UHGV virus genome: UHGV-0088977
Reading direction: 5' to 3' (one strand)
Length of the DNA stretch: 10,919 nt
From: a virus
In this document: positions 51-10,919 of the stretch, piece by piece
How the letters are laid out: the number at the start of each line of letters is the position of its first letter
Position numbering within the stretch: the first letter of the stretch is position 1
The notes under the pieces: generated by a model
Databases searched by the model: none
What the model was told of the DNA's origin: nothing
What the model saw: the letters and a program-made list of their open reading frames with translations, nothing else
Made by a program: the position numbers and the translations under genes

Positions 51-599
51 TTACCGGAGGGGTAAATTATGATTTTGCTTTTCTTCATCATAATTTTTAA
101 TTTCCATCGATAACAAGAAGCTGGGGTTGTTATTTATTTTTTGGGATATTTCTGTAAGGTTAGACCAACAGTTTGTTTCGGATTTTATTATCTTTTCGCA
201 AATAGATGCAAGCGTAGGGTAATCTTCTACGTCTAATGGTCGAATATGCATAACTCTGTTTCTTATTAGAACGAGAGAGTCCAAATCTTTGGTAATGGAT
301 TTTATGAATTTATATATGTGATCGGGAATTTCCTTTCCATTGGAATTTATGATTTGGTAAGTATCTCCAAGGTCAAAATATTCTATTAAATCAATTGATT
401 CTATACCATCCATCACAGTGCCGAGGTCTTTTTCTAGTCTTCTTTTAGCTTTTTCTAAAAGTTCGTTTGGTAGTTTTATTTCTTTATCTTCTGGCTTCAA
501 GATGTAACTTACAACTATTGAACGGAGGTCTTCCTCTAAAGCGCAAAGAAGAGCATAAACTGTCATACGGGTAAGGTTAAATGCCATGAAACTCTCCAT
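51..599 (-). CDS. Hypothetical cargo protein, 182 aa (178 aa if started at the second ATG, 587), with a HEPN-like R-N-x3-H motif (LIRNRVMH); candidate RNase-type abortive-infection/toxin effector
   Basis: Long ORF in very AT-rich DNA, where chance ORFs of this length are unlikely; motif RNRVMH near residues 113-118 fits the HEPN Rx4-6H signature with the typical polar residue after Arg; GGAGAG Shine-Dalgarno lies upstream of the second ATG (MAFNL); sits immediately distal to the integrase. Confidence 0.55.
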   Translation of the reverse strand: MESFMAFNLTRMTVYALLCALEEDLRSIVVSYILKPEDKEIKLPNELLEKAKRRLEKDLGTVMDGIESIDLIEYFDLGDTYQIINSNGKEIPDHIYKFIKSITKDLDSLVLIRNRVMHIRPLDVEDYPTLASICEKIIKSETNCWSNLTEISQKINNNPSFLLSMEIKNYDEEKQNHNLPLR

Positions 600-630
600 G
601 AGGTTGTGGTTTTTTTGTTAAGGAGGCATT

Positions 631-732
631 ATGGCATATAACAAATTATTTACGAGAGTCGATGAAATAAAATGTGATAAAAGTACGATACTAGGCTTTC
701 ACCAAGGGAATGGTTTACTGATGAAACAGTAA
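631..732 (+). CDS. Possible small ORF (33 aa, MAYNKLFTRVDEIKCDKSTILGFHQGNGLLMKQ) divergent from the cargo gene
   Basis: Consensus Shine-Dalgarno TAAGGAGG at 619-626, 4 nt before the ATG at 631; in-frame TAA at 730-732. Too short to judge by composition, and the SD could instead belong to the upstream region of the minus-strand gene. Confidence 0.2.
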   Translation: MAYNKLFTRVDEIKCDKSTILGFHQGNGLLMKQ

Positions 733-905
733 ATCTATAAAAATATTGTTTTTATACTCTACATTGATTCGGCATTAACTCTGCAATTTGTGGGGTAATT
801 AATGTCAATTATGAAAAAAACATCCAATCATTATACTAAGTAGACTTATTAATTACATTGTGTGCTTTTTACATGCGTAACTAATATTTGCTCATTCCCA
901 CAATT

Positions 906-2033
906 TTAACATGTTATCTTCATCCAGTTTTTCCCACGATCATCATCATAACGATCAGTTTGCTGTTGTGTTTTATGCCCAAGTAGCTTCCTAGTATCTA
1001 TCCCTTGTTCTTTGTACAGGCGTTCAGATAAAGACCTTTGCTCATGGAATGTGGCAGGTGAGCCATCCCCCCAGTCAATCCCTGCTAAATCCCGTGCTTT
1101 ACTAAAATTCATCGTCAATGTATTGGATTTAACCTGTGCACCACGTTTTGCCTGTGAGGTTGAACGGAAAAAATGCACTAAGTATGGACTGACTGCATAA
1201 TCACGGCAGCGGACTACTACATCGCGTAAACTCCAGCTAATCGCGTTGAGACGAAGGGAAAGCGGGATTGCGATTTTGCTCCCGGTCTTTTCCTGAATAA
1301 CATGGAGATGATCATCCCAAATATCACTAAATTTCATACGCGAGATATCACCTAACCTCTGGCCAGTAACCAGTGCTAACAGCATGGCATTCCCCATATA
1401 ACGATGACTGGCATCTGCGATATCAAAAATTTTTTGCCATTCTTCAAGACTTAACCGTTGTCGGGTAATTTTTCTTCTGGGTTGCTTCGTTGCAAGAGCA
1501 GGGTTATACCCTGGTGGAACTTCGCCGTAATGCTGTGCTTCTTTAAACACATCGATCAATACAGACCTTACGACCTGGGCCATTCTAGGCTGTCCAGCAG
1601 AGATATACTCATCAAGTAATTGTGCTATATCTCTGACATCAACGGCTGATATCAACTTCAGTCCTGCTCGTTCCCTGAGCAAGGATACTGGTTTGGCTTT
1701 CTGTTTATAAGTGTTGAGCTTTATATCGCCACTTTTCAGTCTGTCTTCCTGGATTGCTTGATAGCGATCTAACCAGGTTGACGTTGTGATTGCTTTTCCT
1801 TTGCTGGTTGCGATCCTGTCACTGATAGCTAGAATCTGGCGGGTTCTTTGCTCAGCTAGGCGTGTATTGGCCTCAGTGGCAATAGCAATGGCTTCAGCTT
1901 CGTTTGTGCCCAAAGAATGAAACTTCCCGGTCACTGGATGCTTATATCGCCAATAAACTTTATTTACTTTTCTGCTATAGAGCGGATACAAGTTCGGGAC
2001 TGAAACATTATTCTTACGTGGTCTGGCTGCCAT
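906..2033 (-). CDS. intE: Lambda-family tyrosine recombinase / phage integrase (375 aa), e14 IntE-like
   Basis: Translation aligns by eye to lambda Int: N-terminal arm-binding region (PNLY...), catalytic region LVTGQRLGDI (Arg), HEQRSLSERLY (His/Arg) and LLGHKTQQQTDRYDDDRG (Tyr nucleophile); 20-nt overlap with the upstream excisionase ORF. The intE symbol is from memory of e14 and is not verified. Confidence 0.93.
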   Translation of the reverse strand: MAARPRKNNVSVPNLYPLYSRKVNKVYWRYKHPVTGKFHSLGTNEAEAIAIATEANTRLAEQRTRQILAISDRIATSKGKAITTSTWLDRYQAIQEDRLKSGDIKLNTYKQKAKPVSLLRERAGLKLISAVDVRDIAQLLDEYISAGQPRMAQVVRSVLIDVFKEAQHYGEVPPGYNPALATKQPRRKITRQRLSLEEWQKIFDIADASHRYMGNAMLLALVTGQRLGDISRMKFSDIWDDHLHVIQEKTGSKIAIPLSLRLNAISWSLRDVVVRCRDYAVSPYLVHFFRSTSQAKRGAQVKSNTLTMNFSKARDLAGIDWGDGSPATFHEQRSLSERLYKEQGIDTRKLLGHKTQQQTDRYDDDRGKNWMKITC

Positions 2034-2259
2034 TACTTAAAATCCTTTGTAGAATAATAGAATCACTTTTCTTAATGACAGGAGTAACTAATTCTCCAAC
2101 TAACTCTGCGTCCTCACGTACTCGCCATAGTCGACCTTGTTTCATTGCCGGTGGACAAAATAAATTCTGCTTAGCATAACGACGCAATGTGGACACACTT
2201 GGAGGGTTACTCCTAAATTTTTCCGCAGCCCATTCCTCAAGTGTCAGCATTTGAAGCAT
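2014..2259 (-). CDS. xisE: Excisionase (lambda Xis-like, 81 aa)
   Basis: MLTLEEWAAEKF...PSVSTLRRYAK...FCPPAMKQGRLW resembles lambda Xis (YLTLQEWNARQ...SLETVRRWVRE...FPPPVKDGRE); GAGG Shine-Dalgarno 8 nt before the ATG at 2259; overlaps the int start, as is typical for xis-int. Confidence 0.85.
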   Translation of the reverse strand: MLQMLTLEEWAAEKFRSNPPSVSTLRRYAKQNLFCPPAMKQGRLWRVREDAELVGELVTPVIKKSDSIILQRILSNGSQTT

Positions 2260-2313
2260 TTTGATAACCTCATTTCTTTTGCTACAAAACTATTTCACTA
2301 GTTAATTTCGCAG

Positions 2314-2850
2314 TTAGGATTGCTTATGCATCTTATGCAGCTCTTTAAAACGTTCCATAAACATCCCGTAGGCATGGCCCGGTGCCAGTGGAATCACGTT
2401 GAACATCTCTGTTGCCTGGATACCTTCCAGTACAGGCCAGAAAGAGCCATCATCAAGCCCGAGATCGCGGCGTTCGGTTGCCAGCATGATGAGATCGGCA
2501 TATTTCACAGGCGTGCTCATAACCGGGGGTAACCCGTATTTCTCACGGATTATGGTGTCTATTTTTTCTTCCATCCGTTTATAGTCAGGAAGAAGGCGTT
2601 TCAGTGGTGCGGGGATGTCCTGGCAATACGCTTCTGTTGCATCATGCATTAACGCTTCAAAAGCAAATTCCTGCGGTACCAGCTGGCTGCAAAGCACCGC
2701 ATGTTGGGCGACGCTGTAGAAGTGCGAAAGATGACCGGCAAAGCGACAGATATTTGAAAGGGAAACCGCGATATCGTTAATATCGATGTCGTCTTTATTT
2801 ATCCTGTCATAATAAAAATGCTTCCCAGAAAAAGTTTTAATAAATGACAT
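2314..2850 (-). CDS. yfdR: HD-domain phosphohydrolase, YfdR-like (putative 5'-deoxynucleotidase), 178 aa from the internal ATG
   Basis: H...HD signature (FAGHLSHFYSVAQHA and ALMHDATEAY); GAGGAG Shine-Dalgarno 6 nt upstream of the ATG at 2850, which gives the 178-aa product MSFIKTF..., whereas the track ORF extends to 2913 without an SD. Name is from memory of the CPS-53 yfdR gene. Confidence 0.8.
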   Translation of the reverse strand: MSFIKTFSGKHFYYDRINKDDIDINDIAVSLSNICRFAGHLSHFYSVAQHAVLCSQLVPQEFAFEALMHDATEAYCQDIPAPLKRLLPDYKRMEEKIDTIIREKYGLPPVMSTPVKYADLIMLATERRDLGLDDGSFWPVLEGIQATEMFNVIPLAPGHAYGMFMERFKELHKMHKQS

Positions 2851-2944
2851 TTTGTTCTCCTCGTTATATGCGCTGCACCGCGCTGAATTTGGGTTAAAGA
2901 AAACCCTCGCCATCAGGCGATTATTGAGTCAATTACGTTTCCAT

Positions 2945-2966
2945 AAATGCCCCCGCAGGGGCATTT
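2945..2966. repeat. Perfect inverted repeat AAATGCCCC-CGCA-GGGGCATTT (9-bp arms, 4-nt loop) between the yfdQ-like and yfdR-like genes
   Basis: Read directly from the sequence; no U-tract follows on either strand, so it is not a classic intrinsic terminator. Could be an mRNA-processing or stabilising hairpin, or a protein-binding site. Confidence 0.6.
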
Positions 2967-2978
2967 GCAGTAATGAAA

Positions 2979-3803
2979 TCAGGCGGTGAAAGTACCAATA
3001 AAGGTTTCTACTTTGCTGTCCTTGAATTTCTCAACAAGCAGATCACGAAATTCGTTAGCCATTTCTTCCTGCACTGCTTCCAGCTGAATAATGCGCAGAA
3101 CCAGTACAGGACGATCGCCAGTGATAATGCTGAGGCGTAATTTAAATGGACGTTCTTTCAGGCCTTCAAACGGAACGCATTTAAATTCAAATGCCACTGG
3201 CATAATGTCTTTGGTCTTCGCTTCGACAGACTCCATCAGGGAGCGTTTGCCGCTGAAGTCATTATCTTCAAAATCAGCGGTCTGGTTTGCTTCAATCGTG
3301 ATTTTACGGACAGCCGCAGCCGCTTTTGTTGCCTGAATAGCGTCACCATTAGCATCAAAGCCCACAAGGTAGTCGGCCCAGTCTTCAATCCATTCTGCCA
3401 GTGACTTCTGGGAATTACGCTCGCCATTAACAGACAACAGAGCAGAGAACGGTGCTGTCTTTTTCAGTTTGAGAGTGGCGGTGTTATCGGCGTGACCTGG
3501 TTCATCAATAGTACCCAGGTTAAGAACACTGACGGCACGCATATTATCAGCATCGATAAAGCAGCGGGTGCCTTCATCTGCAAGATCTTTAGAATAACAG
3601 GTAAAGTCATCGATGCTGGCAGTGGAAAGCGCACCACGGAAACGGAAGCGATTTAAATTAAATTTTTCCAGATCATGAATGCGAAAATTCTCAGGTAATG
3701 CCACTGCGTCGGCACCAATCTTACTGATAATTTCATTAACACCCTGAGCAGAAATAAGGGCATGGATTTGATTAATTGCGGTTGCGTCTAAGTTCTGAGA
3801 CAT
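2979..3803 (-). CDS. yfdQ: YfdQ-like protein (DUF2303 family), 274 aa
   Basis: Full-length ORF with a GAGGA Shine-Dalgarno 7 nt upstream of the ATG at 3803; size and sequence match my recollection of E. coli CPS-53 YfdQ; same strand and tight spacing with the yfdP-like and yfdR-like genes. Confidence 0.8.
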
Positions 3804-3868
3804 AATAAGTCCTCACTATATAAAGATATTCAGTGATGAGGTAAATAATTAGTTTATTAAGAACGATA

Positions 3869-4231
3869 TTAACGACCTGCTGCGCGGAGTTTTCCGTCAG
3901 GTTCACCGGCAAGAGTCAGTAATTGTCCCTGGTCTTCCTGCAGAATAGTCAGGCGACCACCGCGATTGACATACATCGGCGTTTCGGTGGTGTCTTCTTC
4001 GGAAATTTTCCCGCGGTTAGTTGGGCGAACATATGAGAGTTTGTGTTTGATTTTCACACGGTTCTCATCAAACGGTTCGATTTCCAGATTGAGTGAGACC
4101 TTCCCTTTGGTTTTCGTGTTCATCACACCGGAAGCGACTTCACTGAGAACTGCGCCGATTTTGGTTTCAAATACGCCGCCGTCCAGCTCCCCGATAAATG
4201 CCTGCACATCAGTACTGCGTTCGCTAGCCAT
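3869..4231 (-). CDS. yfdP: YfdP-like small protein (about 120 aa; MASERSTDVQAFIGELDGG...)
   Basis: The track ORF runs to 4549, but a strong GAGGAG Shine-Dalgarno sits 8 nt upstream of the ATG at 4231, and the upstream extension crosses the GC-rich island with non-protein-like composition. The resulting 120-aa product matches the yfdP size I recall. Confidence 0.7.
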   Translation of the reverse strand: MASERSTDVQAFIGELDGGVFETKIGAVLSEVASGVMNTKTKGKVSLNLEIEPFDENRVKIKHKLSYVRPTNRGKISEEDTTETPMYVNRGGRLTILQEDQGQLLTLAGEPDGKLRAAGR

Positions 4232-4699
4232 TTTGCTGCTCCTCATCATATCGACCCTGCAAGGCCGATTAGTTTCTCCACAAAACAGAGAAGAACACCT
4301 GCGGTGGCAGCCGCCCGGATGGATTGGGTTATGAGCCCGTCGTCCGGTGATGCTCTTCTCTGTTTTGTAAAAAGGACGGTACCAGCCGGAAGCAAGAGTA
4401 CAAACTGGTACCGCCAAGACTACACACAGCATAAAGTTGTGGTGCCGGGTGCCTCCCGGTGCCTGGCGAAGGTTGCACACCAGGCGGGTGGGTATCCACA
4501 GAAGGTCGACTGTCAGCCTCAACCTTAACCCGCGTGCGCTGAGCCGCATTCACCACAACGCTAAGGATTCTCTCTGGTTGAAAATACTTAGCTGTTATGT
4601 GCCTGCTTTTAGCCACATCAGGCGAGGTGGACCTGGTTATTCCCCAACAACAAGGATTCGGTTAATCTGGTTATCCCCAACAACGCAAAAGGAAAAGAA
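4232..4699. promoter_or_regulatory. GC-rich structured non-coding island between the yfdP-like gene and the divergent 144-aa gene; probable divergent promoter and 5'-UTR region, possible ncRNA
   Basis: No convincing coding frame (the overlapping ORFs translate to P/G/S/R-rich low-complexity peptides); imperfect 17-bp inverted repeat 4281-4297/4351-4367 with a perfect 14-bp core; hairpin CCGGG-TGCCT-CCCGG near 4446-4460; GGTGCC direct repeat; CCTGG...CCAGG stem near 4462-4483. Confidence 0.4.
4633..4684 (+). repeat. Tandem direct repeat CTGGTTAT(T)CCCCAACAAC (copies at 4633-4651 and 4667-4684, 34-bp period), with a degenerate third copy at 4551-4580
   Basis: Seen directly; the second copy ends 15 nt before the ATG of the 144-aa gene and abuts its Shine-Dalgarno (AAAAGGA, 4687-4693). 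Confidence 0.6.
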
Positions 4700-5134
4700 A
4701 TGTCCGGTAATATCTATACGCTGTACAAATCCCACTGTGAAAATGTTGGAAAGTATCGGGGCATTGAAATCAGTGGGGTAGTGTCATCAGTCGAAATAAG
4801 CAAAGTTGAATCAAGGGCAACATTACTTACTCTTCTGGACCTTGTCTTACATGAGCACCGGAAGAAATTCGGCACTCCCTATAATCAGTTGAATGGGAAA
4901 AAAGCTCTGGTTCACCTTATTCTGATGAAGCATCACTGGATGCCAAAACAGATTAATGAGATGAAATTTGATGAACTTCTTCTTTCAATTCAGGATGAAC
5001 TCACGCTTGATAAAATAAGCGTAACCGCCCAGAAATTTTTAGATTATCGAGACTGGAGATCACAAATTCATCACTTTGATGATTTTGACGAAAATGAATG
5101 GGATCCTAATTTGTCTGCACAATATCTAAAGTAA
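4700..5134 (+). CDS. Hypothetical protein, 144 aa, AT-rich orphan (moron-like) gene of unknown function
   Basis: Uninterrupted 144-codon ORF in AT-rich DNA; Shine-Dalgarno AAGGA 6 nt upstream of the ATG; opposite orientation to the flanking leftward operon; plus-strand intrinsic terminator downstream at 5372-5397. No recognisable motif by eye. Confidence 0.7.
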   Translation: MSGNIYTLYKSHCENVGKYRGIEISGVVSSVEISKVESRATLLTLLDLVLHEHRKKFGTPYNQLNGKKALVHLILMKHHWMPKQINEMKFDELLLSIQDELTLDKISVTAQKFLDYRDWRSQIHHFDDFDENEWDPNLSAQYLK

Positions 5135-5312
5135 CATCCTGTGATAAAACCGTGATTTCCTGATCCAGTTTTTTTAAGGAGTCTATTGTTTCCTGTCGAT
5201 AAGACAGCACTTCACGAAGCTGGTTTATAGCTGCCAGCTTCTTTGCCATCCACTCGTAAATTTCCTCATTTGTGTATCCGGGTGCGACGATTTTTGGTTC
5301 TGTTTTGTGCAT
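5106..5312 (-). CDS. Hypothetical small protein, 68 aa (MHKTEPKIVAPGYTNEEIYEWMAKK...), hydrophilic and probably helical
   Basis: GAGGAGG Shine-Dalgarno 6 nt upstream of the ATG at 5312; the track's start at 5327 is a TTG that forms part of this SD; the 3' end overlaps the 3' end of the 144-aa gene by 29 nt in convergent orientation. Confidence 0.55.
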   Translation of the reverse strand: MHKTEPKIVAPGYTNEEIYEWMAKKLAAINQLREVLSYRQETIDSLKKLDQEITVLSQDVTLDIVQTN

Positions 5313-5371
5313 TTCACACCTCCTCAAGTTATCAGTTACTTGTTGATGGGGACCAGATTGTTAAAGAGCTA

Positions 5372-5397
5372 AGCGTCCTGTAGGGCGCTTTTTTGTT
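5372..5397 (+). terminator. Rho-independent terminator (stem AGCGTCC/GGGCGCT, loop TGTA, then a T-tract)
   Basis: 7-bp stem including one G-U pair, followed by TTTTT on the plus strand; the complementary strand would carry a C-A mismatch and a poor U-tract, so it is probably plus-strand specific. Confidence 0.6.
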
Positions 5398-5559
5398 GCT
5401 AACGAATCATCCTGGACTTCATATGCCCCAGGCGGCTACTTCGTGGGCGTCCTGCCTGTTCGTTATCTTTGATATAAAATCTAACTTAACTTAGTTATTA
5501 TGGCAAGAGAAAACACCAAACTTTTCTTAGTTCGGTGCCTTAGTTAGAGAAGAGAGGTC

Positions 5560-6186
5560 TTAGAGTTCGTATTGAACTCCTTTGACTACACCAATGATAA
5601 GGCAATTACCATTGATAGGGATGTTGGGATACCGAGGATTTAATGGCACTAAAAACTTTTGAGGGCCATCGATGACTAATTTTTTTACTGTAGCTTCGTT
5701 TGTTCCATCAAGTCGAGCGATGACTATTTTTCCATGACGAGGTTCTGCATCTGGATCTACAATCACTGTTGCGCCTTCTGGTATTGTTGGGAGGCCATTA
5801 GGGTTAGTCATGGAGTCACCTTTAACCTCTAATGCAAATGAGTTATCACCAATCTTTAATGATGTATCTACCCACTTGTCCACTTCACTAAACACTTCTG
5901 CTGCCCTGCACTCAGTAAACTGCCCAGCCTGAACCCACGATATTACAGGAACTCTGCGCATGTTTGTGACGAGTTTGCCTTCAAACTCAGCACCATAAAG
6001 AATGTAATCTATTGACGTATTGAAGAACTTCGCTAATTTCGAAAGTGCCTCCCCACCAGGGGTATTGATGTCTTTCTCCCAGTACCCCACAGCAACGTCG
6101 CTTACTCCACAAAATTTACCCAATTCTTTCTGGGACGTTCCGGTAACTCTTCTCAGAGCTTTTATACGCTGACCAACCGTTTCCAT
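5560..6186 (-). CDS. CI-like prophage repressor, XRE-type HTH fused to an S24 (LexA-like) autopeptidase domain, 208 aa
   Basis: N-terminal HTH (QKELGKFCGVSDVAVGYWEKD); C-terminal GDSM serine motif and VKKL lysine motif as in LexA/lambda CI; divergent from a Cro-like gene. Resembles e14 CohE by position, not verified. Confidence 0.9.
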   Translation of the reverse strand: METVGQRIKALRRVTGTSQKELGKFCGVSDVAVGYWEKDINTPGGEALSKLAKFFNTSIDYILYGAEFEGKLVTNMRRVPVISWVQAGQFTECRAAEVFSEVDKWVDTSLKIGDNSFALEVKGDSMTNPNGLPTIPEGATVIVDPDAEPRHGKIVIARLDGTNEATVKKLVIDGPQKFLVPLNPRYPNIPINGNCLIIGVVKGVQYEL

Positions 6187-6283
6187 AGGAGCACCATTTC
6201 TTGAATTGCTAAGTAATCTTAGTTTTTATTGACCAAAGATAGATTTGTAATTAGCATCTAATAAAACTTAGTTTGGAGGGCGT
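6187..6283. promoter_or_regulatory. Divergent repressor/cro promoter-operator region (PRM/PR-like)
   Basis: 97-bp AT-rich spacer between the divergent repressor and cro starts; near-palindromic motifs ATCTTAGTT (6216-6224) and AACTTAGTT (6265-6273) and inverted repeat CTAAGTAATCTTAG (6208-6221); candidate -35 TTGACC at 6229-6234; GGAGGG Shine-Dalgarno before the cro ATG. Confidence 0.6.
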
Positions 6284-6484
6284 ATGACAACTGACGATAT
6301 CGAAAGCTACTTCGGCAGTATTGAGAAAGTTGCTGCTTTTTTCGGCATAACAACTGAAGCCGTTTATCAGTGGCGAAACCGTCCGGGCCAGTTAATTCCA
6401 AAAGGACGTGCAGCAGAAGCTGCATATAGAACTTGCGGACGGTTGCCATTTAAACCTGAGCTTTATGAAAAATCTAATGGATAA
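6284..6484 (+). CDS. Cro-like small HTH regulator (66 aa)
   Basis: Small basic protein with an HTH-like segment (VAAFFGITTEAVYQWRNRPGQ); strong Shine-Dalgarno; divergent from the repressor; same length as the e14 Cro-like gene as I recall it. Confidence 0.8.
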   Translation: MTTDDIESYFGSIEKVAAFFGITTEAVYQWRNRPGQLIPKGRAAEAAYRTCGRLPFKPELYEKSNG

Positions 6485-7073
6485 ATCGATTAACAGAAAC
6501 CACAGAACGATGAGGTTAACCGTGGGTAAGCATCACTGGAAAGTAGAAAAACAGCCTGAGTGGTACGTGAAAGCTGTCAGAAAAACTATCGCAGCGTTGC
6601 CGGGTGGTTACGCTGAAGCAGCTGACTGGCTGGATGTAACAGAAAACGCATTATTTAACCGCCTTCGTGCCGATGGCGATCAGATTTTCCCGCTGGGATG
6701 GGCAATGATTTTGCAACGTGCTGGTGGAACTCACTTCATTGCTGACGCTGTGGCGCAGTCTGCAAATGGCGTCTTTGTGTCTCTTCCTGACGTCGAGGAT
6801 GTGGACAACGCCGATATTAACCAGCGCCTGCTGGAAGTCATTGAACAGATTGGCAGTTATTCCAGACAGATTCGTTCGGCAATCGAAGACGGTGTGGTGG
6901 AACCGCATGAGAAGACAGCAATTAACGACGAGCTGTATCTCTCAATTTCGAAGCTGCAGGAGCATGCAGCACTGGTCTACAAAATCTTTTGCATTTCAGA
7001 AAGTAATGACGCCCGCGAGTGTGCAGCTCCGGGCGCCGTGGCGTGTCGTGACTGTGGAGAAACTAACGCATGA
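6465..7073 (+). CDS. Early regulatory protein, YmfL/YdaT-like by position and size (about 200 aa); start uncertain (6465 or 6477)
   Basis: ORF immediately after and overlapping the cro stop, suggesting translational coupling; no clear Shine-Dalgarno; ATGA overlap with the next gene. Assignment rests on synteny with e14 as I recall it. Confidence 0.6.
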
Positions 7074-7408
7074 ACAGTTTAACAACACACTACCGTCGCT
7101 CGCAACTGATTGCGCTTCCTGTACCGGGTGGAAAAGCGAAGGTGGAGTATTGCTATGCAGTTAATGTACCAGGTGACAGGGAAATTGTAACCCACAGCTT
7201 TGCTGAGTGGGCTGTGGGTGATTTCAACCGGCAGAAGGAGACAGTCCTTTGCGACAAGTTAACCGCTGGTTCAAAGATCACTACGGAGTGCCCGTCAGAG
7301 TCATTCGTTGGGAGCCGGAAACACAACGGGTTATCTACCTCCGCGAAGGCTATGAGCATGAGTGCTTCAGCCCGCTCGAACAGTTTCGTCGTAAATTCAG
7401 GGAAATAG
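7070..7408 (+). CDS. ymfM: YmfM-like protein (112 aa)
   Basis: ATGA stop/start overlap with the preceding gene; length equals that of e14 YmfM as I recall it; sequence identity not verified. Confidence 0.55.
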
Positions 7409-7417
7409 AGGTCGGTC

Positions 7418-7972
7418 ATGAGCACTAAATTAACCGGCTATGTATGGGATGGTTGCGCTGCATCAGGCATGAAATTATCCAGCGTGGCAATTATGGCCCG
7501 CCTGGCTGATTTCAGTAATGACGAAGGTGTGTGCTGGCCATCAATTGAAACCATTGCCCGTCAGATTGGCGCGGGGATGAGTACCGTCAGGACGGCTATC
7601 GCACGGCTGGAAGCAGAAGGCTGGTTAACGCGTAAGGCGCGTCGCCAGGGTACGGGGGCAGGCTGTATTGCGCGTGCTGACTTTGAAGCCCGACAACGGG
7701 CGGCGCGGACGGATGAAACCACCTATGTGGTGCAGGGCTGGCGACAGGGTAACGGTACGCTGTGGCAGCCCAACCAGCGGGTGATTGTCTTTGATCCGGT
7801 CTGTGGTTTCGACAATACCGAACTGCTTGTTTCGGAAGTCACGTTTACTCAGGACCAGAACGGCACCCTGACGGAAATCCGTGTCGGCCCGCCTGATGCT
7901 TATCTGCCTGAACCCGAAGCCCCCGGCGCGCGGAAAAAGAAAAAAGCCAGAGTACAGGAGGACCCGTTCTGA
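7418..7972 (+). CDS. Apparently chimeric ORF (184 aa): N-terminal HTH/replication-initiator-like domain joined to a C-terminal fragment resembling the end of a Mu gp44-type baseplate hub protein; probable deletion-fusion
   Basis: N-terminus (SSVAIMARLADFSNDEGVCWPSIETIARQIGAGMSTVRTAIARLEAEGWL) looks like a phage O/HTH protein; the composition changes around residue 95, and the C-terminus runs straight into the baseplate V gene with TGATG stop/start coupling. Confidence 0.6.
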   Translation: MSTKLTGYVWDGCAASGMKLSSVAIMARLADFSNDEGVCWPSIETIARQIGAGMSTVRTAIARLEAEGWLTRKARRQGTGAGCIARADFEARQRAARTDETTYVVQGWRQGNGTLWQPNQRVIVFDPVCGFDNTELLVSEVTFTQDQNGTLTEIRVGPPDAYLPEPEAPGARKKKKARVQEDPF

Positions 7973-8520
7973 TGAGGACGATTGAAGCCATGCAGCGACA
8001 ACTCCTCGGCCTGATTGGGCGGGCCGTGGTGAAAAGTATCAGTGCCGCCACGAAATGTCAGACCGTGGATGTGTCCCTGATTGCCGGTGAACCCAAAGCC
8101 GGGGTTGAACATCTTGAACCCTACGGTTTTACCGCAAGGGCAAACAGCGGTGCGGAAGCGGTGGTGTTGTTTCCGGATGGCGACCGTTCTCATGCGGTGG
8201 TTGTTACGGTGTCGGACCGGCGCTACCGCCTGAAAGGGCTGCAGACGGGTGAGGTGGCTGTCTATGACGATCAGGGGCAGTCCGTGACGCTGACCCGGGA
8301 GGGGATCGTGGTGGACGGTGCAGGTAAAACGATCACGTTTCGCAATGCACCTGAAGCACGTTTTGAAATGGACCTGGAAGTGACAGGACAGGTGAAAGAC
8401 CTGTGCGACTCCGGCGGCACCACCATGTCAGCGATGCGGCTTGCCTATAACGGGCATCGTCACAGAGAGAACGGTCAGGGCAGTAACACCGACAAACCTG
8501 ATAAAGCGATGGAGGCATGA
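7972..8520 (+). CDS. Baseplate assembly protein V / spike-like (Mu gp45-like), 182 aa
   Basis: Position in the baseplate block; C-terminal NGHRH (HxH) motif as found at the apex of phage spike proteins; overlapping stop/start with flanking genes. Confidence 0.75.
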   Translation: MRTIEAMQRQLLGLIGRAVVKSISAATKCQTVDVSLIAGEPKAGVEHLEPYGFTARANSGAEAVVLFPDGDRSHAVVVTVSDRRYRLKGLQTGEVAVYDDQGQSVTLTREGIVVDGAGKTITFRNAPEARFEMDLEVTGQVKDLCDSGGTTMSAMRLAYNGHRHRENGQGSNTDKPDKAMEA

Positions 8521-8945
8521 TGGAACTGTGGCTGACGGTGAACGGTAAACGCACCTGCGCCAGCGCACCGCTGGATCCGCTGACCCGCGCCGTGGTGATT
8601 TCCCTGTTTACCTGGCGGCGGGCGGAGCCTGATGACAACGCCGACGTCCCGATGGGATGGTGGGGGGATACCTGGCCTGCGGTACAGAATGACCGTTACG
8701 GCTCCCGACTGTGGCTGCTTCAGCGCAGCAAACTGACCAATCAGCTGGTGCAGACGGTAAGGGGGTATATCCGCGAATGCCTGCAATGGATGATTGATGA
8801 CGGCGTGGTGTCCCGTATTGATCTGGATATCCGCCGCACCGGGATTAATGAACTGGGTAACAGTATCACTCTCTGGCGTCGTGACGGACCGGTAATGATT
8901 TCTTTTGATGATCTGTGGAGTGCGATAACGCATGGCGGACAGTGA
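8517..8945 (+). CDS. Phage GP46-family baseplate protein (Mu gp46-like), 142 aa
   Basis: Sits between the V-like and J-like genes; contains the GWWGD motif I recall as typical of GP46-family proteins; ATGATG overlap with the upstream gene. Confidence 0.75.
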   Translation: MMELWLTVNGKRTCASAPLDPLTRAVVISLFTWRRAEPDDNADVPMGWWGDTWPAVQNDRYGSRLWLLQRSKLTNQLVQTVRGYIRECLQWMIDDGVVSRIDLDIRRTGINELGNSITLWRRDGPVMISFDDLWSAITHGGQ

Positions 8946-9990
8946 ATTTCAGCGCCCGACGCTGGCAGAAAATATCAGTATGCTCCGTAACGATTTATTC
9001 GCCAGGCTGGACGTCAGCGACACGCTCCGGCGCATGGATGAAGACGTGCGGGCAAAGGTGTATGCGGCAGCGCTGCATACGGTTTACGGGTACATCGATT
9101 ATCTGGCAATGAATATGCTGCCTGACCTGTGCGATGAGTCCTGGCTGGCGCGACATGCTGCGATGAAACGGTGTCCGCGCAAGGGGGCCACGGCTGCCAG
9201 CGGGTATATGCGCTGGGAAGGTGTCAGCGATGGCCTGAAGGTGACCGCCGGGAGTGTTATTCAGCGCGATGACCTGGTTCAGTACACGGCAACTGCCGAT
9301 GCAACCAGCTCCGGTGGTGTCCTGCGTGTGCCGATCACTTGCTCAACTACAGGCGCGGTCGGTAACGCTGACGACGGTACGGCATTAATCCTGGTCACGC
9401 CGGTGAATGGTCTGCCGTCTTCCGGTGTGGCTGACACCCTGACAGGCGGATTTGATACTGAAGAGCTGGAAACGTGGCGCGCCCGCGTCATTGAGCGGTA
9501 TTACTGGACGCCTCAGGGCGGGGCTGACGGGGACTATGTCGTCTGGGCTAAAGAAGTGCCCGGCATTACCCGCGCATGGACATACCGACACTGGATGGGA
9601 ACGGGGACTGTCGGTGTGATGATTGCCAGCAGTGACCTGATTAATCCCATTCCGGAAGAGTCAACGGAAACGGCGGCAAGACAACATATCGAGCCACTGG
9701 CCCCGGTGGCAGGCTCTGATTTGTATGTATTCAGGCCGGTGGCGCATAAAGTGGATTTTCATATCCGCGTGACGCCGGACACACCGGAAATACGGGCTGC
9801 CATCACCGCCGAGTTGCGTTCGTTCCTGCTGCGTGATGGTTATCCGCAGGGAGAACTGAAGGTGTCGCGTATCAGTGAAGCGATTTCCGGTGCGAACGGG
9901 GAATACAGCCATCAGTTGCTTGCACCGGCAGACAATATCTCCATTGCAAAAAATGAACTGGCGGTACTGGGGACGATTTCATGGACGTGA
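8932..9990 (+). CDS. Baseplate J-like protein (Mu gp47-like), 352 aa
   Basis: Size and position in the baseplate block; overlapping starts and stops with its neighbours; resembles e14 JayE-type proteins by context. Confidence 0.8.
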
Positions 9991-10565
9991 CAAACGATGA
10001 TTACATCCGTCTGTTGTCGGCACTGTTGCCCCCCGGTCCGGCGTGGTCAGCCAGCGATCCGGCGATTGCCGGTGCGGCACCGTCATTAACCCGCGTTCAT
10101 CAGCGTGCGGATGCCCTGATGCGGGAGCTGGATCCGCGCACCACCACTGAACTGATAAACCGCTGGGAGCGTCTGTGCGGTCTGCCGGATGAATGTATTC
10201 CGGCGGGAACGCAGACCCTTCGCCAGCGTCAGCAACGGCTGGATGCGAAGGTTAATCTGGCGGGCGGCATCAATGAGGATTTTTACCTTGCACAGCTTGC
10301 TGCCCTGGGCAGACCAGACGCCACCATCACGCGATACGACAAAAGCACGTTCACCTGCTCATCGGCCTGTACTGACGCAGTGAATGCGCCGGAATGGCGG
10401 TATTACTGGCAGGTCAACATGCCAGCCGCCACCAACACCACCTGGATGACATGTGGCGATCCCTGTGATTCCGCACTGCGTATCTGGGGCGACACCGTTG
10501 TCGAGTGCGTGCTTAACAAACTCTGCCCTTCGCATACCTACGTAATTTTTAAATATCCGGAGTAA
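9981..10565 (+). CDS. ymfQ: Tail protein, YmfQ-like (DUF2313 / Mu gp48-like), 194 aa
   Basis: Length identical to e14 YmfQ as I recall it; lies between the J-like gene and the tail-fibre gene; translationally coupled. Confidence 0.75.
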
Positions 10566-10567
10566 TC

Positions 10568-10919
10568 CATGCATCGTATAGACACGAAAACCGCGCAGAA
10601 GGATAAGTTCGGCGCGGGTAAGAACGGTTTTACCCGTGGTAACCCCCAGACCGGCACACCTGCCACCGATCTGGATGATGACTACTTTGACATGTTGCAG
10701 GAAGAACTTTGTAGCGTTGTTGAGGCATCCGGTGCCAGTCTGGAGAAGGCGCGGCACGACCAGCTGCTTACCGCACTTCGTGCGCTGCTGTTAAGCCGCA
10801 AGAATCCGTTTGGCGATATCAAATCGGATGGCACGGTGAAAACGGCTCTCGAAAACCTTGGTCTGGGAGAAGGCTCTGCATTACCCGTTGGTGTGCCTGT
10901 TCCGTGGCCTTCCACCACT
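10568..10919 (+). CDS. Side tail fibre protein, N-terminal part (truncated by the window end)
   Basis: [47 protein letters not shown] is the conserved N-terminal anchor domain of lambdoid/Mu-type side tail fibres; GGAG Shine-Dalgarno before the ATG at 10568. Confidence 0.8.

Follow-up and report, generated by a model that had tools for sequence, protein, structure and literature searches.

Three genes, yfdP, yfdQ and yfdR, lie next to one another on the minus strand of the window, by which we mean the whole 10,919-nt stretch of DNA analysed here. The genes and features of this region are as follows:

906..2033, minus strand: intE-type tyrosine integrase (Pfam Arm-DNA-bind_1 and Phage_integrase)
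2014..2259, minus strand: xisE-type excisionase (Pfam Exc, E=1.5e-12; annotated xisE in ML35 and RM10466)
2278..4241, no strand: mosaic cassette of 1.96 kb between xisE and ymfH, where K-12 e14 has 16 bp
2314..2850, minus strand: yfdR, 178 aa, HD-domain 5'-deoxynucleotidase (predicted from orthology and motif)
2851..2978, minus strand: structured yfdQ-yfdR spacer with hairpins, a possible attenuator
2979..3803, minus strand: yfdQ, 274 aa, DUF2303 / YfdQ family
3869..4231, minus strand: yfdP, 120 aa, small acidic protein
4246..4616, minus strand: ymfH-like frameshifted pseudogene, directly upstream of yfdP
4700..5134, plus strand: ECs1072-family phage-associated gene (NCBIfam NF033230, E=1.7e-46; phrog_5286)
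5560..6186, minus strand: cI/LexA-like repressor with HTH and S24 peptidase domains (Pfam Peptidase_S24, E=9e-28; HTH_3, E=1e-10)
6284..6484, plus strand: cro-like regulator, divergent from the repressor (Cro/CI family annotation in ML35)

The block runs from position 2314, the final base of the yfdR stop codon, to 4231, where the yfdP ATG begins. The mechanically called yfdR ORF extends to 2913; the RefSeq start at 2850 carries a Shine-Dalgarno sequence and was used for that reason. All three ORFs are intact, co-directional and free of overlaps, with gaps of 65 nt (yfdP-yfdQ), 128 nt (yfdQ-yfdR) and 54 nt (yfdR-xis). The initial annotation had described three tightly spaced genes with 54 nt from the yfdR stop to the xis start; the spacing is indeed close and the distance exact. 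It had also placed GAGGAG ahead of each gene, which is right for yfdP and yfdR, while yfdQ has GAGGA. The ribosome-binding sites are good, and the dN/dS values against CPS-53 (0.10, 0.05 and 0.11 for yfdP, yfdQ and yfdR, respectively) demonstrate that all three genes are under purifying selection.

Relative to K-12 CPS-53, BLASTP found 118/120 identical residues in YfdP (98%), 271/274 in YfdQ (99%) and 165/176 in YfdR (94%), which bears out the names first proposed for these genes; the same names, yfdP, yfdQ and yfdR, are carried by the RefSeq annotations of the best matches. The cassette DNA is 96.6% identical to CPS-53 over 1909 nt, which rules out a chance resemblance. YfdP belongs to its family both by sequence (phrog_204, E=1.2e-49; the YfdP family is PHROG 204) and by its position directly upstream of yfdQ, and its homologues carry PF27127 in precomputed annotations. 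YfdQ matches Pfam DUF2303 (PF10065) over its full length (E=7.9e-92, residues 7-272 of 274), scoring 307.7 bits against a gathering cut-off of 26.6. Fold searches on YfdP and YfdQ returned nothing informative. PADLOC defence models gave no match for YfdP, YfdQ or YfdR, and a defence or anti-defence assignment of the three was dropped. We also dropped a recombination-protein role for YfdP and YfdQ, which recombinase neighbours in virulent phages had suggested; such a role had already been argued against in print, on the ground that complete Rec modules accompany the cluster (PMC12315714).

YfdR matches phrog_318, "deoxyribonucleoside 5' monophosphate phosphatase" (E=1e-106), and its K-12 counterpart is annotated as a 5'-deoxynucleotidase. 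Alignment with YfbR and PDB 2gz4 places the HD motif at H50, H69-D70, E73, D78 and D119, in agreement with the HD-domain protein first recognized here. Judged from this alignment the metal-binding motif is intact, and orthology together with the H...HD...D motif and its catalytic Glu assigns the protein to the YfdR-type HD-domain 5'-deoxynucleotidases. Because the homology breakpoint falls at window position 2342, the 3' end of yfdR differs from K-12: its final ~10 codons (last ~28 nt) diverge, and several of the 11 substitutions between the two proteins lie within this recombinant C-terminus. E. coli YfbR, a dCMP phosphohydrolase and HD-domain 5'-deoxynucleotidase, has the HD fold and the HD..E....D motif in common with YfdR but only ~26% identity to it. 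YfdR scores 20 bits against the NCBIfam YfbR equivalog NF003009 (cut-off 122) and 24.4 against Pfam YfbR-like PF12917, just under the gathering score of 25.9; by these scores it is a distant relative of YfbR and no YfbR equivalog. PMC4776307, citing Zimmerman 2008, describes K-12 YfdR as a low-affinity HD-domain 5'-deoxynucleotidase with nucleotide affinities far below those of YfbR. In addition, K-12 YfdR binds domain I of DnaA (Phe46) and is a moderate competitor of DiaA and DnaB (PMC4776307). K-12 YfdR is thus known to have dNMP phosphohydrolase activity and to bind DnaA domain I; for the window copy both are predicted.

The surroundings of the cassette belong to an e14-family prophage, as the initial annotation had supposed. 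In blastn comparisons, window positions 930-2277 and 4242-4630 match K-12 e14 (L003, 4704-6052 and 6069-6456), whereas 2342-4250 matches CPS-53, and the junction alignments have ATATG(A/C)TGAG in common at the yfdP side. Relative to K-12 e14, the cassette is thus a discrete mosaic module. We defined the e14 family by e14-type int-xis, ymfH/ymfL/ymfQ homologues and integration beside icd. Segments of the window are 87-97% identical to K-12 e14, with 87.5% nucleotide identity between the int-xis region and intE-xisE. The ML35 locus (99.9% identical) and RM10466 adjoin icd; the window itself stops short of it. The ymfH-like pseudogene has 90% nucleotide identity to the K-12 e14 ymfH region, is termed "frameshifted" in the ML35 annotation, and divides the K-12 YmfH translation between two window ORFs. 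No Rfam family or tRNA was found in the GC-rich gap at 4232-4700, and an RNA gene there was rejected, the gap being the frameshifted ymfH homologue. In addition, an IS end truncates a cargo gene at 1-55, and baseplate genes are fused to what remains of a replication gene. The host element is a defective, decayed e14-family prophage.

The cI-like repressor, which marks the immunity region and is co-directional with the cassette, lies on the minus strand together with yfdP/Q/R, xis and int, as expected of an early-left (pL-type) accessory location. Between the repressor and yfdP stand the opposite-strand ECs1072-family gene (4700-5134), which separates the immunity region from the cassette, and the pseudogene. 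A consensus promoter scan gave 9 sites against 7.4 expected from shuffles, no better than shuffled sequence. Within the cassette, the yfdQ-yfdR spacer (2851-2978) contains a perfect 9-bp GC-rich hairpin directly downstream of the yfdQ stop codon, together with a terminator-like hairpin and T-run at 2920-2907 on the minus strand, and its RNA folds at -43.2 kcal/mol (z=-2.7 vs shuffled sequences). The spacer could act as an intra-operon attenuator; in K-12, yfdPQ has been treated as an operon apart from yfdR (PMC9181523). Lytic expression of yfdPQR may never happen here, because the prophage is defective.

The relatives recovered by a first IMG/VR scan were all from E. coli and 99-100% identical, and these loci served for E. 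coli-like counts; cross-species synteny was taken from a scan of species-representative genomes. Of 5426 complete E. coli genomes, 109 have the exact xisE|yfdR junction, as does one phage, vB_EcoM-689R6; a yfdR|yfdS junction is found in 2297 E. coli genomes. The window arrangement is kept at at least 99% identity in several unrelated strains, and 49 phage records hold the cassette at >90% identity. YfdP stands directly upstream of YfdQ in 77 of the 80 species-representative YfdQ loci. Downstream sequence reached at least 3 kb in 74 of these: 37 have PQR without recognisable S/T, which is the commonest class, 16 have PQ, and another 16 have PQR together with S and/or T; the YfdS and YfdT HMMs behind these classes were built on E. 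coli seeds and could overlook distant analogues. The state without yfdS and yfdT is not unusual. The commonest gene pattern is cI>YfdP>YfdQ>YfdR>Xis>Int, and the yfdR-xis slot holds unrelated small ORFs in most other species. YfdP adjoins YfdQ in phages, both temperate and virulent, that infect Escherichia, Salmonella, Pseudomonas, Vibrio and Xanthomonas; in five distant phages the P-Q pair is present in all and YfdR in two. In particular, P-Q occurs without R in Xanthomonas and Vibrio phages, beside recombinase, exonuclease and SSB genes. Taken together, these results demonstrate that YfdP-YfdQ is the conserved pair and that YfdR, S and T are facultative, which goes modestly beyond the literature.

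It has been previously reported that multicopy yfdQRST inhibits replication initiation and that YfdR binds DnaA (Noguchi & Katayama 2016, PMC4776307), as the initial annotation had stated. The block of oriC initiation in vivo requires yfdQ and yfdR as well as yfdS or yfdT, while yfdP is dispensable, and a yfdQR-only plasmid, pBS17, failed to suppress hda-185 (PMC4776307). The window holds yfdQ and yfdR and lacks the rest of this minimal inhibitor set: tblastn of K-12 YfdS, YfdT and YpdJ against all six window frames found none of them (best E=0.095), which upholds the earlier statement that yfdS and yfdT are absent and excludes hidden or fused copies within the window. Since published yfdQR without S/T gives no replication phenotype, the replication-inhibition lead is weakened for the window copy, which is predicted to be unable by itself to block oriC initiation; any DnaA-directed block would be weak or absent. 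Deletion of yfdQRST in K-12 changed neither replication nor hydroxyurea resistance (PMC4776307).

We consider it highly probable that the block is an orthologue of the known yfdP-yfdQ-yfdR accessory module of lambdoid early-left operons, acting along the following lines. In SfV/e14/ST64B-type temperate phages the module belongs to the early operon that runs leftward (immunity region -> ... -> xis -> int); to go by gene order, it would be transcribed with xis-int from a repressor-controlled early-left promoter after induction or infection, with the structured spacer perhaps tuning read-through into yfdR. YfdP and YfdQ may jointly form the conserved core, and YfdR, S/T or other small genes may be facultative partners that link it to host DNA metabolism early in lytic growth, possibly via DnaA and the dNMP pool. 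In a copy without S/T, the likely residual activities would be dNMP dephosphorylation by YfdR and the function of YfdP-YfdQ. A bolder version, which we regard as tentative and rather doubtful, makes YfdP-YfdQ an ancient obligate pair that is the true core, possibly forming a large assembly as the 36 chains in PDB 9o7m and the virion association in phage JC1 would suggest, with R, S, T and other small genes as exchangeable adaptors for host targets, DnaA among them; if it holds, copies without S/T keep an unrecognised early phage function independent of replication-initiation control.

Several other explanations were weighed against this one. One of them builds on the initial annotation: a relocated, distinctive variant without S/T whose HD nucleotidase was recruited to an early operon to manipulate nucleotide pools in conflicts among phages or between phage and defence. 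The intact HD catalytic motif with its dNMP phosphatase PHROG fits that idea, as does the minority of the xisE junction in E. coli (109 vs 2297 genomes). However, the block has not moved, having the same position in K-12, SfV and 689R6; no class is commoner across species than P-Q-R without S/T; PADLOC matched none of the three proteins; the nucleotide affinities cited in PMC4776307 for YfdR are low; and no feature of the window ties the cassette to a conflict system, so we judge this reading very improbable. That the genes are functionless passengers, merely undecayed and inert in this prophage, is suggested by the degraded element around them (IS end at 1-55, frameshifted ymfH, fusion of a replication remnant to baseplate genes) and by the lack of effect on replication or hydroxyurea resistance described for the K-12 yfdQRST deletion (PMC4776307). 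Three intact ORFs with good ribosome-binding sites, dN/dS values of 0.05-0.11 and the same arrangement at at least 99% identity in several unrelated strains speak against it, and we hold it to be unlikely.

The same intactness and purifying selection inside a decayed prophage could instead point to a host-domesticated stress module, expressed in lysogens under host control for survival of oxidative or alkylation stress, as proposed for CPS-53. The strongest SrsR (YgfI) target in K-12 is the yfdO/yfdP spacer, and yfdPQ is activated by this regulator in stationary phase (PMC9181523); yfdQ deletion mutants have a weak sensitivity to MMS and H2O2, according to work mentioned in PMC4776307. The SrsR boxes (L001, 7462-7502) nevertheless fall outside the segment common with the window, and when sought upstream of yfdP in the window they were absent, which led us to reject K-12-type SrsR regulation of this yfdP. 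Furthermore, the low dN/dS may stem from selection in active phages that exchange the module (49 records, >90%), and domestication here seems improbable. Nor do we give much credence to YfdQ, with YfdP, as a large self-assembling protein, perhaps carried in the virion, whose action at DNA entry or immediately afterwards might be to protect or organise incoming DNA, with YfdR as an unrelated neighbour. PDB 9o7m, "YfdQ Protein", consists of 36 chains of a homologue with 98.8% identity to a protein from a Xanthomonas CP2-like phage; mass spectrometry detected gp10, the DUF2303 protein of Burkholderia podovirus JC1, in association with virions (PMC9144972), and P-Q is kept without R in Xanthomonas and Vibrio phages. 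But all genomes examined place the gene with early rather than structural genes, the JC1 association is a single proteomics observation, and K-12 genetics needs yfdQ together with yfdR (PMC4776307), which speaks against YfdR as a mere neighbour. The entry 9o7m is itself unlikely to be a virion reconstruction: the Xanthomonas phage capsid protein has no near-identical PDB entry, and 9o7m lacks that phage's neighbouring YfdP homologue, downstream 401-aa protein and capsid protein. It is probably not a virion map; a full-text literature search on its code gave no relevant paper.

The yfdPQR genes, their order and their lambdoid early-left position are already annotated in RefSeq and published, and the analysis has little consequence for the window locus itself. 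The natural yfdPQR-only cassettes in 109 complete E. coli genomes offer a ready test of the yfdS/yfdT requirement in DnaA-directed inhibition. In addition, the invariant pair is YfdP-YfdQ rather than YfdQ-YfdR, which gives a starting point for functional work on a widespread module.

Clusters of the yfdPQR type are common in lambdoid phages, with a predicted function for the nucleotidase only (Genome Res 2025, PMC12315714). The gp35-37 genes of ST64B and gp37-39 of phage LLS, given as "yfbR(yfdR)-yfdQ-yfdP", comprise these three families in unchanged order within an early-left operon. ST64B is more divergent in its YfdQ region (~35% identical to a Xanthomonas-phage YfdQ query, not to the window copy) and, unlike the window, has DUF262 and Ea22-like genes after yfdR. 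In K-12 CPS-53 (KplE1) the order is yfdP-yfdQ-yfdR-yfdS-yfdT-ypdJ-torI, torI being the excisionase. Order, orientation and intergenic spacers of P-Q-R, including the hairpin-rich yfdQ-yfdR spacer, are as in the window, and both blocks end at an excisionase gene. The claim that the block lies outside its K-12 context therefore needs correction, since in K-12 it also stands just upstream of the excisionase torI, and likewise in SfV. The window differs in lacking yfdS, yfdT and ypdJ, so that yfdR leads into an e14-type xis and not torI, in an upstream region that is e14 ymfH-like and without the K-12 SrsR boxes, and in keeping the immunity region that K-12 CPS-53 has lost. Shigella phage SfV reads cI-orf33-yfdP-Q-R-S-T-xis-int (yfdPQRST being orf32-orf31-orf30-orf29-orf28) and carries the yfdS and yfdT homologues that the window does not. 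Escherichia phage vB_EcoM-689R6 (cI - yfdP-yfdQ-HD hydrolase - xis - int, beside icd) has the xis junction without S/T exactly as in the window, and E. coli RM10466 reads cI - yfdP-Q-R - xis - int. The SfV and 689R6 cassettes are ~97% identical in DNA and occupy the same slot between cI and xis-int; these two are complete phages or derived from them, whereas the window prophage is deleted and IS-disrupted. As the K-12 and SfV orders also put the block before the excisionase, gene order indicates that the early-left slot between immunity region and xis is ancestral and that CPS-53 arose from this layout by deletion.

The window is a fragment of an e14-family lambdoid prophage, and its top database match was E. 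coli ML35 (99.9% identity across window 56-10482). In ML35 the locus adjoins icd and RefSeq already uses the gene names yfdR, yfdQ and yfdP. The genes on either side of it are as follows.

Genes from the integrase to the cro-like gene (window coordinates, strand, description)
906-2033 (-), intE-type integrase
2014-2259 (-), xisE-type excisionase
2314-2850 (-), yfdR
2979-3803 (-), yfdQ
3869-4231 (-), yfdP
~4246-4616 (-), ymfH homologue, frameshifted
4700-5134 (+), ECs1072-family gene
5106-5327 (-), small ORF, 73 aa, phrog_1744
5560-6186 (-), cI/LexA-like repressor
6284-6484 (+), cro-like gene, divergent

The initial annotation proposed a triad resembling yfdP, yfdQ and yfdR at 2314-4231, limits that coincide exactly with the stop of yfdR and the start of yfdP. 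The three proteins are identical to those of the E. coli K-12 prophage CPS-53 at 118/120 (YfdP), 271/274 (YfdQ) and 165/176 (YfdR) positions, and the cassette DNA is 96.6% identical over 1909 nt. DUF2303 covers YfdQ over its full length (E=7.9e-92). YfdR, correctly described as an HD-domain protein, has metal and catalytic residues (H50, H69-D70, E73, D78 and D119) that align with PDB 2gz4 and E. coli YfbR, and is included in PHROG 318, 'deoxyribonucleoside 5' monophosphate phosphatase'. Values of dN/dS against CPS-53 were 0.10 for yfdP, 0.05 for yfdQ and 0.11 for yfdR codons 1-169, indicating purifying selection on all three genes. A GAGGAG Shine-Dalgarno had been claimed for each gene; it precedes yfdP and yfdR, but yfdQ has GAGGA. 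The spacers measure 65 nt (yfdP-yfdQ), 128 nt (yfdQ-yfdR) and 54 nt (yfdR-xis), the last exactly as first described. A search of every frame of the window found no homologue of YfdS, YfdT or YpdJ, in agreement with the proposed absence of yfdS and yfdT.

Called mechanically, the yfdP ORF spans 3869-4549 (-) and encodes 226 aa, as one frame of the frameshifted ymfH enters yfdP without a stop. The resulting Arg/Cys-rich extension at the N-terminus probably goes untranslated; it is the annotated start at 4231 that carries the GAGGAG site. The ECs1072-family gene lies on the strand opposite to all surrounding genes, its 3' end overlaps that of the 73-aa ORF convergently by 29 nt, and a strong terminator-like hairpin lies nearby at 5371-5390 (+). 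The region resembles a moron-type insertion that separates the repressor from the early-left genes.

Comparison with K-12 e14 and CPS-53 delimited the cassette. K-12 e14 shares homology with window 930-2277 (int-xis) and 4242-4630 (ymfH), and has only 16 bp in place of window 2278-4241. Homology to CPS-53 extends over window 4250-2342: it begins 19 nt upstream of the yfdP ATG and ends 28 nt short of the yfdR stop. The 3' end of yfdR and 36 nt beyond it are variant-specific. The yfdP-side junction has the sequence ATATG(A/C)TGAG, common to the window, K-12 e14 and CPS-53. A second segment common to both prophage types, unrelated to the cassette, is window 10631-10872, which matches the yfdL tail-fibre pseudogene region of CPS-53 (5883-6124) in inverted orientation at 93.8% identity.

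It has been previously reported that in K-12 the yfdO/yfdP spacer contains four boxes for the host factor SrsR (YgfI), which binds them and activates a 'yfdPQ' operon (PMC9181523). We located these boxes at CPS-53 7462-7502, as three to four 11-bp TCAGATTTTGA repeats with a spacing of 15 bp, just beyond the segment shared with the window; upstream of yfdP in the window they are absent. Because the boxes lie outside the shared cassette, yfdPQ of K-12 and of the window must differ in regulation. The 128 nt separating yfdQ from yfdR form several hairpins on folding (-43.2 kcal/mol, z=-2.7), one of them terminator-like with a T-run, which fits partial transcriptional uncoupling of yfdPQ from yfdR.

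What the initial annotation said of the literature on inhibition of replication proved correct, but the same paper weakens that lead. Suppression of hda-185 does not need yfdP and needs both yfdQ and yfdR; a yfdQR plasmid without yfdST does not suppress, and the minimal set comprises yfdQ with yfdR plus one of yfdS and yfdT (Noguchi & Katayama, PMC4776307). With neither yfdS nor yfdT, the window does not carry this set in full. In that study only YfdR bound DnaA, via Phe46 of domain I; it moderately inhibited DiaA and DnaB binding, its nucleotide affinities were noted to be far below YfbR's, and deletion of yfdQRST left initiation unaffected (PMC4776307). YfdR most likely acts as a dNMP phosphatase of the HD-domain type and binds DnaA. 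The nucleotidase is the only predicted function in a yfdP/yfdQ/nucleotidase cluster (PMC12315714).

The conserved unit is the YfdP-YfdQ pair, neither protein of which has a PADLOC or NCBIfam model. A solved structure named 'YfdQ Protein' (PDB 9o7m; 36 chains of a single sequence) matches window YfdQ at E=1e-44 and shares 98.8% sequence identity with an ORF from MET23-P3, a CP2-like Xanthomonas phage (4962-5786). Immediately upstream of this ORF is a YfdP homologue (32% identity, phrog_204); the phage has no YfdR, and its downstream genes include a recombinase, an exonuclease and an SSB. YfdP also directly precedes YfdQ in Pseudomonas phage KT1, Vibrio phages 44E38.1 and D81, and ST64B, of which only KT1 and ST64B have YfdR. 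A DUF2303 protein, gp10 of Burkholderia podovirus JC1, was unexpectedly detected in virions (PMC9144972). The capsid protein of the Xanthomonas phage lacks a near-identical counterpart in the PDB, so 9o7m probably does not represent a virion map. The structure could show the role of DUF2303 proteins.

Among 5426 complete E. coli genomes, 3031 carry the 2.4-kb region. Junction probes, counted for xisE|yfdR at a coverage of at least 80%, were covered in 109 genomes for xisE|yfdR, 2297 for the K-12 yfdR|yfdS junction and 305 for the cassette-free e14 junction xisE|ymfH. Across 80 species-representative genomes with a YfdQ homologue (41-99% identity), 77 have YfdP as the immediate upstream neighbour of YfdQ. 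Classes assigned by iteratively built HMMs, for the 74 loci whose downstream sequence reached 3 kb or more, were P-Q-R (37), P-Q only, without YfdR (16), P-Q-R-T (11), P-Q-R-S-T (3), P-Q-R-S (2) and other (5). The top single pattern was cI>YfdP>YfdQ>YfdR>Xis>Int. In most of the species surveyed, the space between yfdR and xis is taken up by small ORFs of other, unrelated kinds, and yfdR directly abuts xis (<200 nt) in 3 of the 29 loci where both were found (Shigella, Proteus and Providencia). The slot after yfdR is therefore a variable region, with yfdS/yfdT one filling among several. Before xis-int, the slot after YfdQ or YfdR holds diverse small ORFs in many Enterobacterales and in Marinobacter, Hahella and Photobacterium, which the survey's YfdS/YfdT HMMs do not recognise.

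Window 1-55 matches E. coli genomes at 71005 places, with a median of 10 in each genome, and looks like an IS element's terminal inverted repeat, presumably that of IS1 on the basis of the sequence GGTAATGACTC.AACTTATTGATAGTG. It cuts a low-GC gene, 51-599 (-), after 182 codons; the intact form in ML35 and E. coli RM10466 is a 775-aa 'tetratricopeptide repeat protein', and the N-terminus matches phrog_24039 and, at E=1e-10, PDC-M34B, a candidate defence model of PADLOC. The gene, located between int and attL, appears to be a cargo or defence gene that has been disrupted. At ~7418-7972 (+), a chimeric ORF joins an N-terminal helix-turn-helix part, which resembles an O-like phage replication protein homologous to K-12 e14 oweE and is annotated 'incomplete' in ML35, to a baseplate-assembly protein. 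Around it, at about 7.3-7.6 kb, GC climbs from ~0.45 to ~0.58, and e14 homology stops at window 7651, the K-12 oweE/aaaE fusion point (e14 9404). A large internal deletion took out the late-regulation, lysis, head and tail-tube genes, leaving the prophage defective.

Taken together, the cassette is most likely an ordinary, known early-left accessory module of a defective e14-type prophage, gained or kept there through modular recombination. The identities in the initial annotation stand, but its view that the block is placed differently from the K-12 context was wrong: synteny shows it ahead of the excisionase in K-12, SfV and 689R6. K-12 CPS-53 reads yfdP-yfdQ-yfdR-yfdS-yfdT-ypdJ-torI, ending at its excisionase torI, and the functional Shigella phage SfV reads cI-orf33-yfdP-yfdQ-yfdR-yfdS-yfdT-xis-int. 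The order in Escherichia phage vB_EcoM-689R6, cI-...-yfdP-yfdQ-HD hydrolase-xis-int-(icd), matches the window layout exactly, and the e14-like prophage of RM10466, much more complete than that of the window, has an identical cassette arrangement. These gene orders indicate that the early-left position is ancestral; CPS-53 has the identical architecture minus a deleted immunity region.
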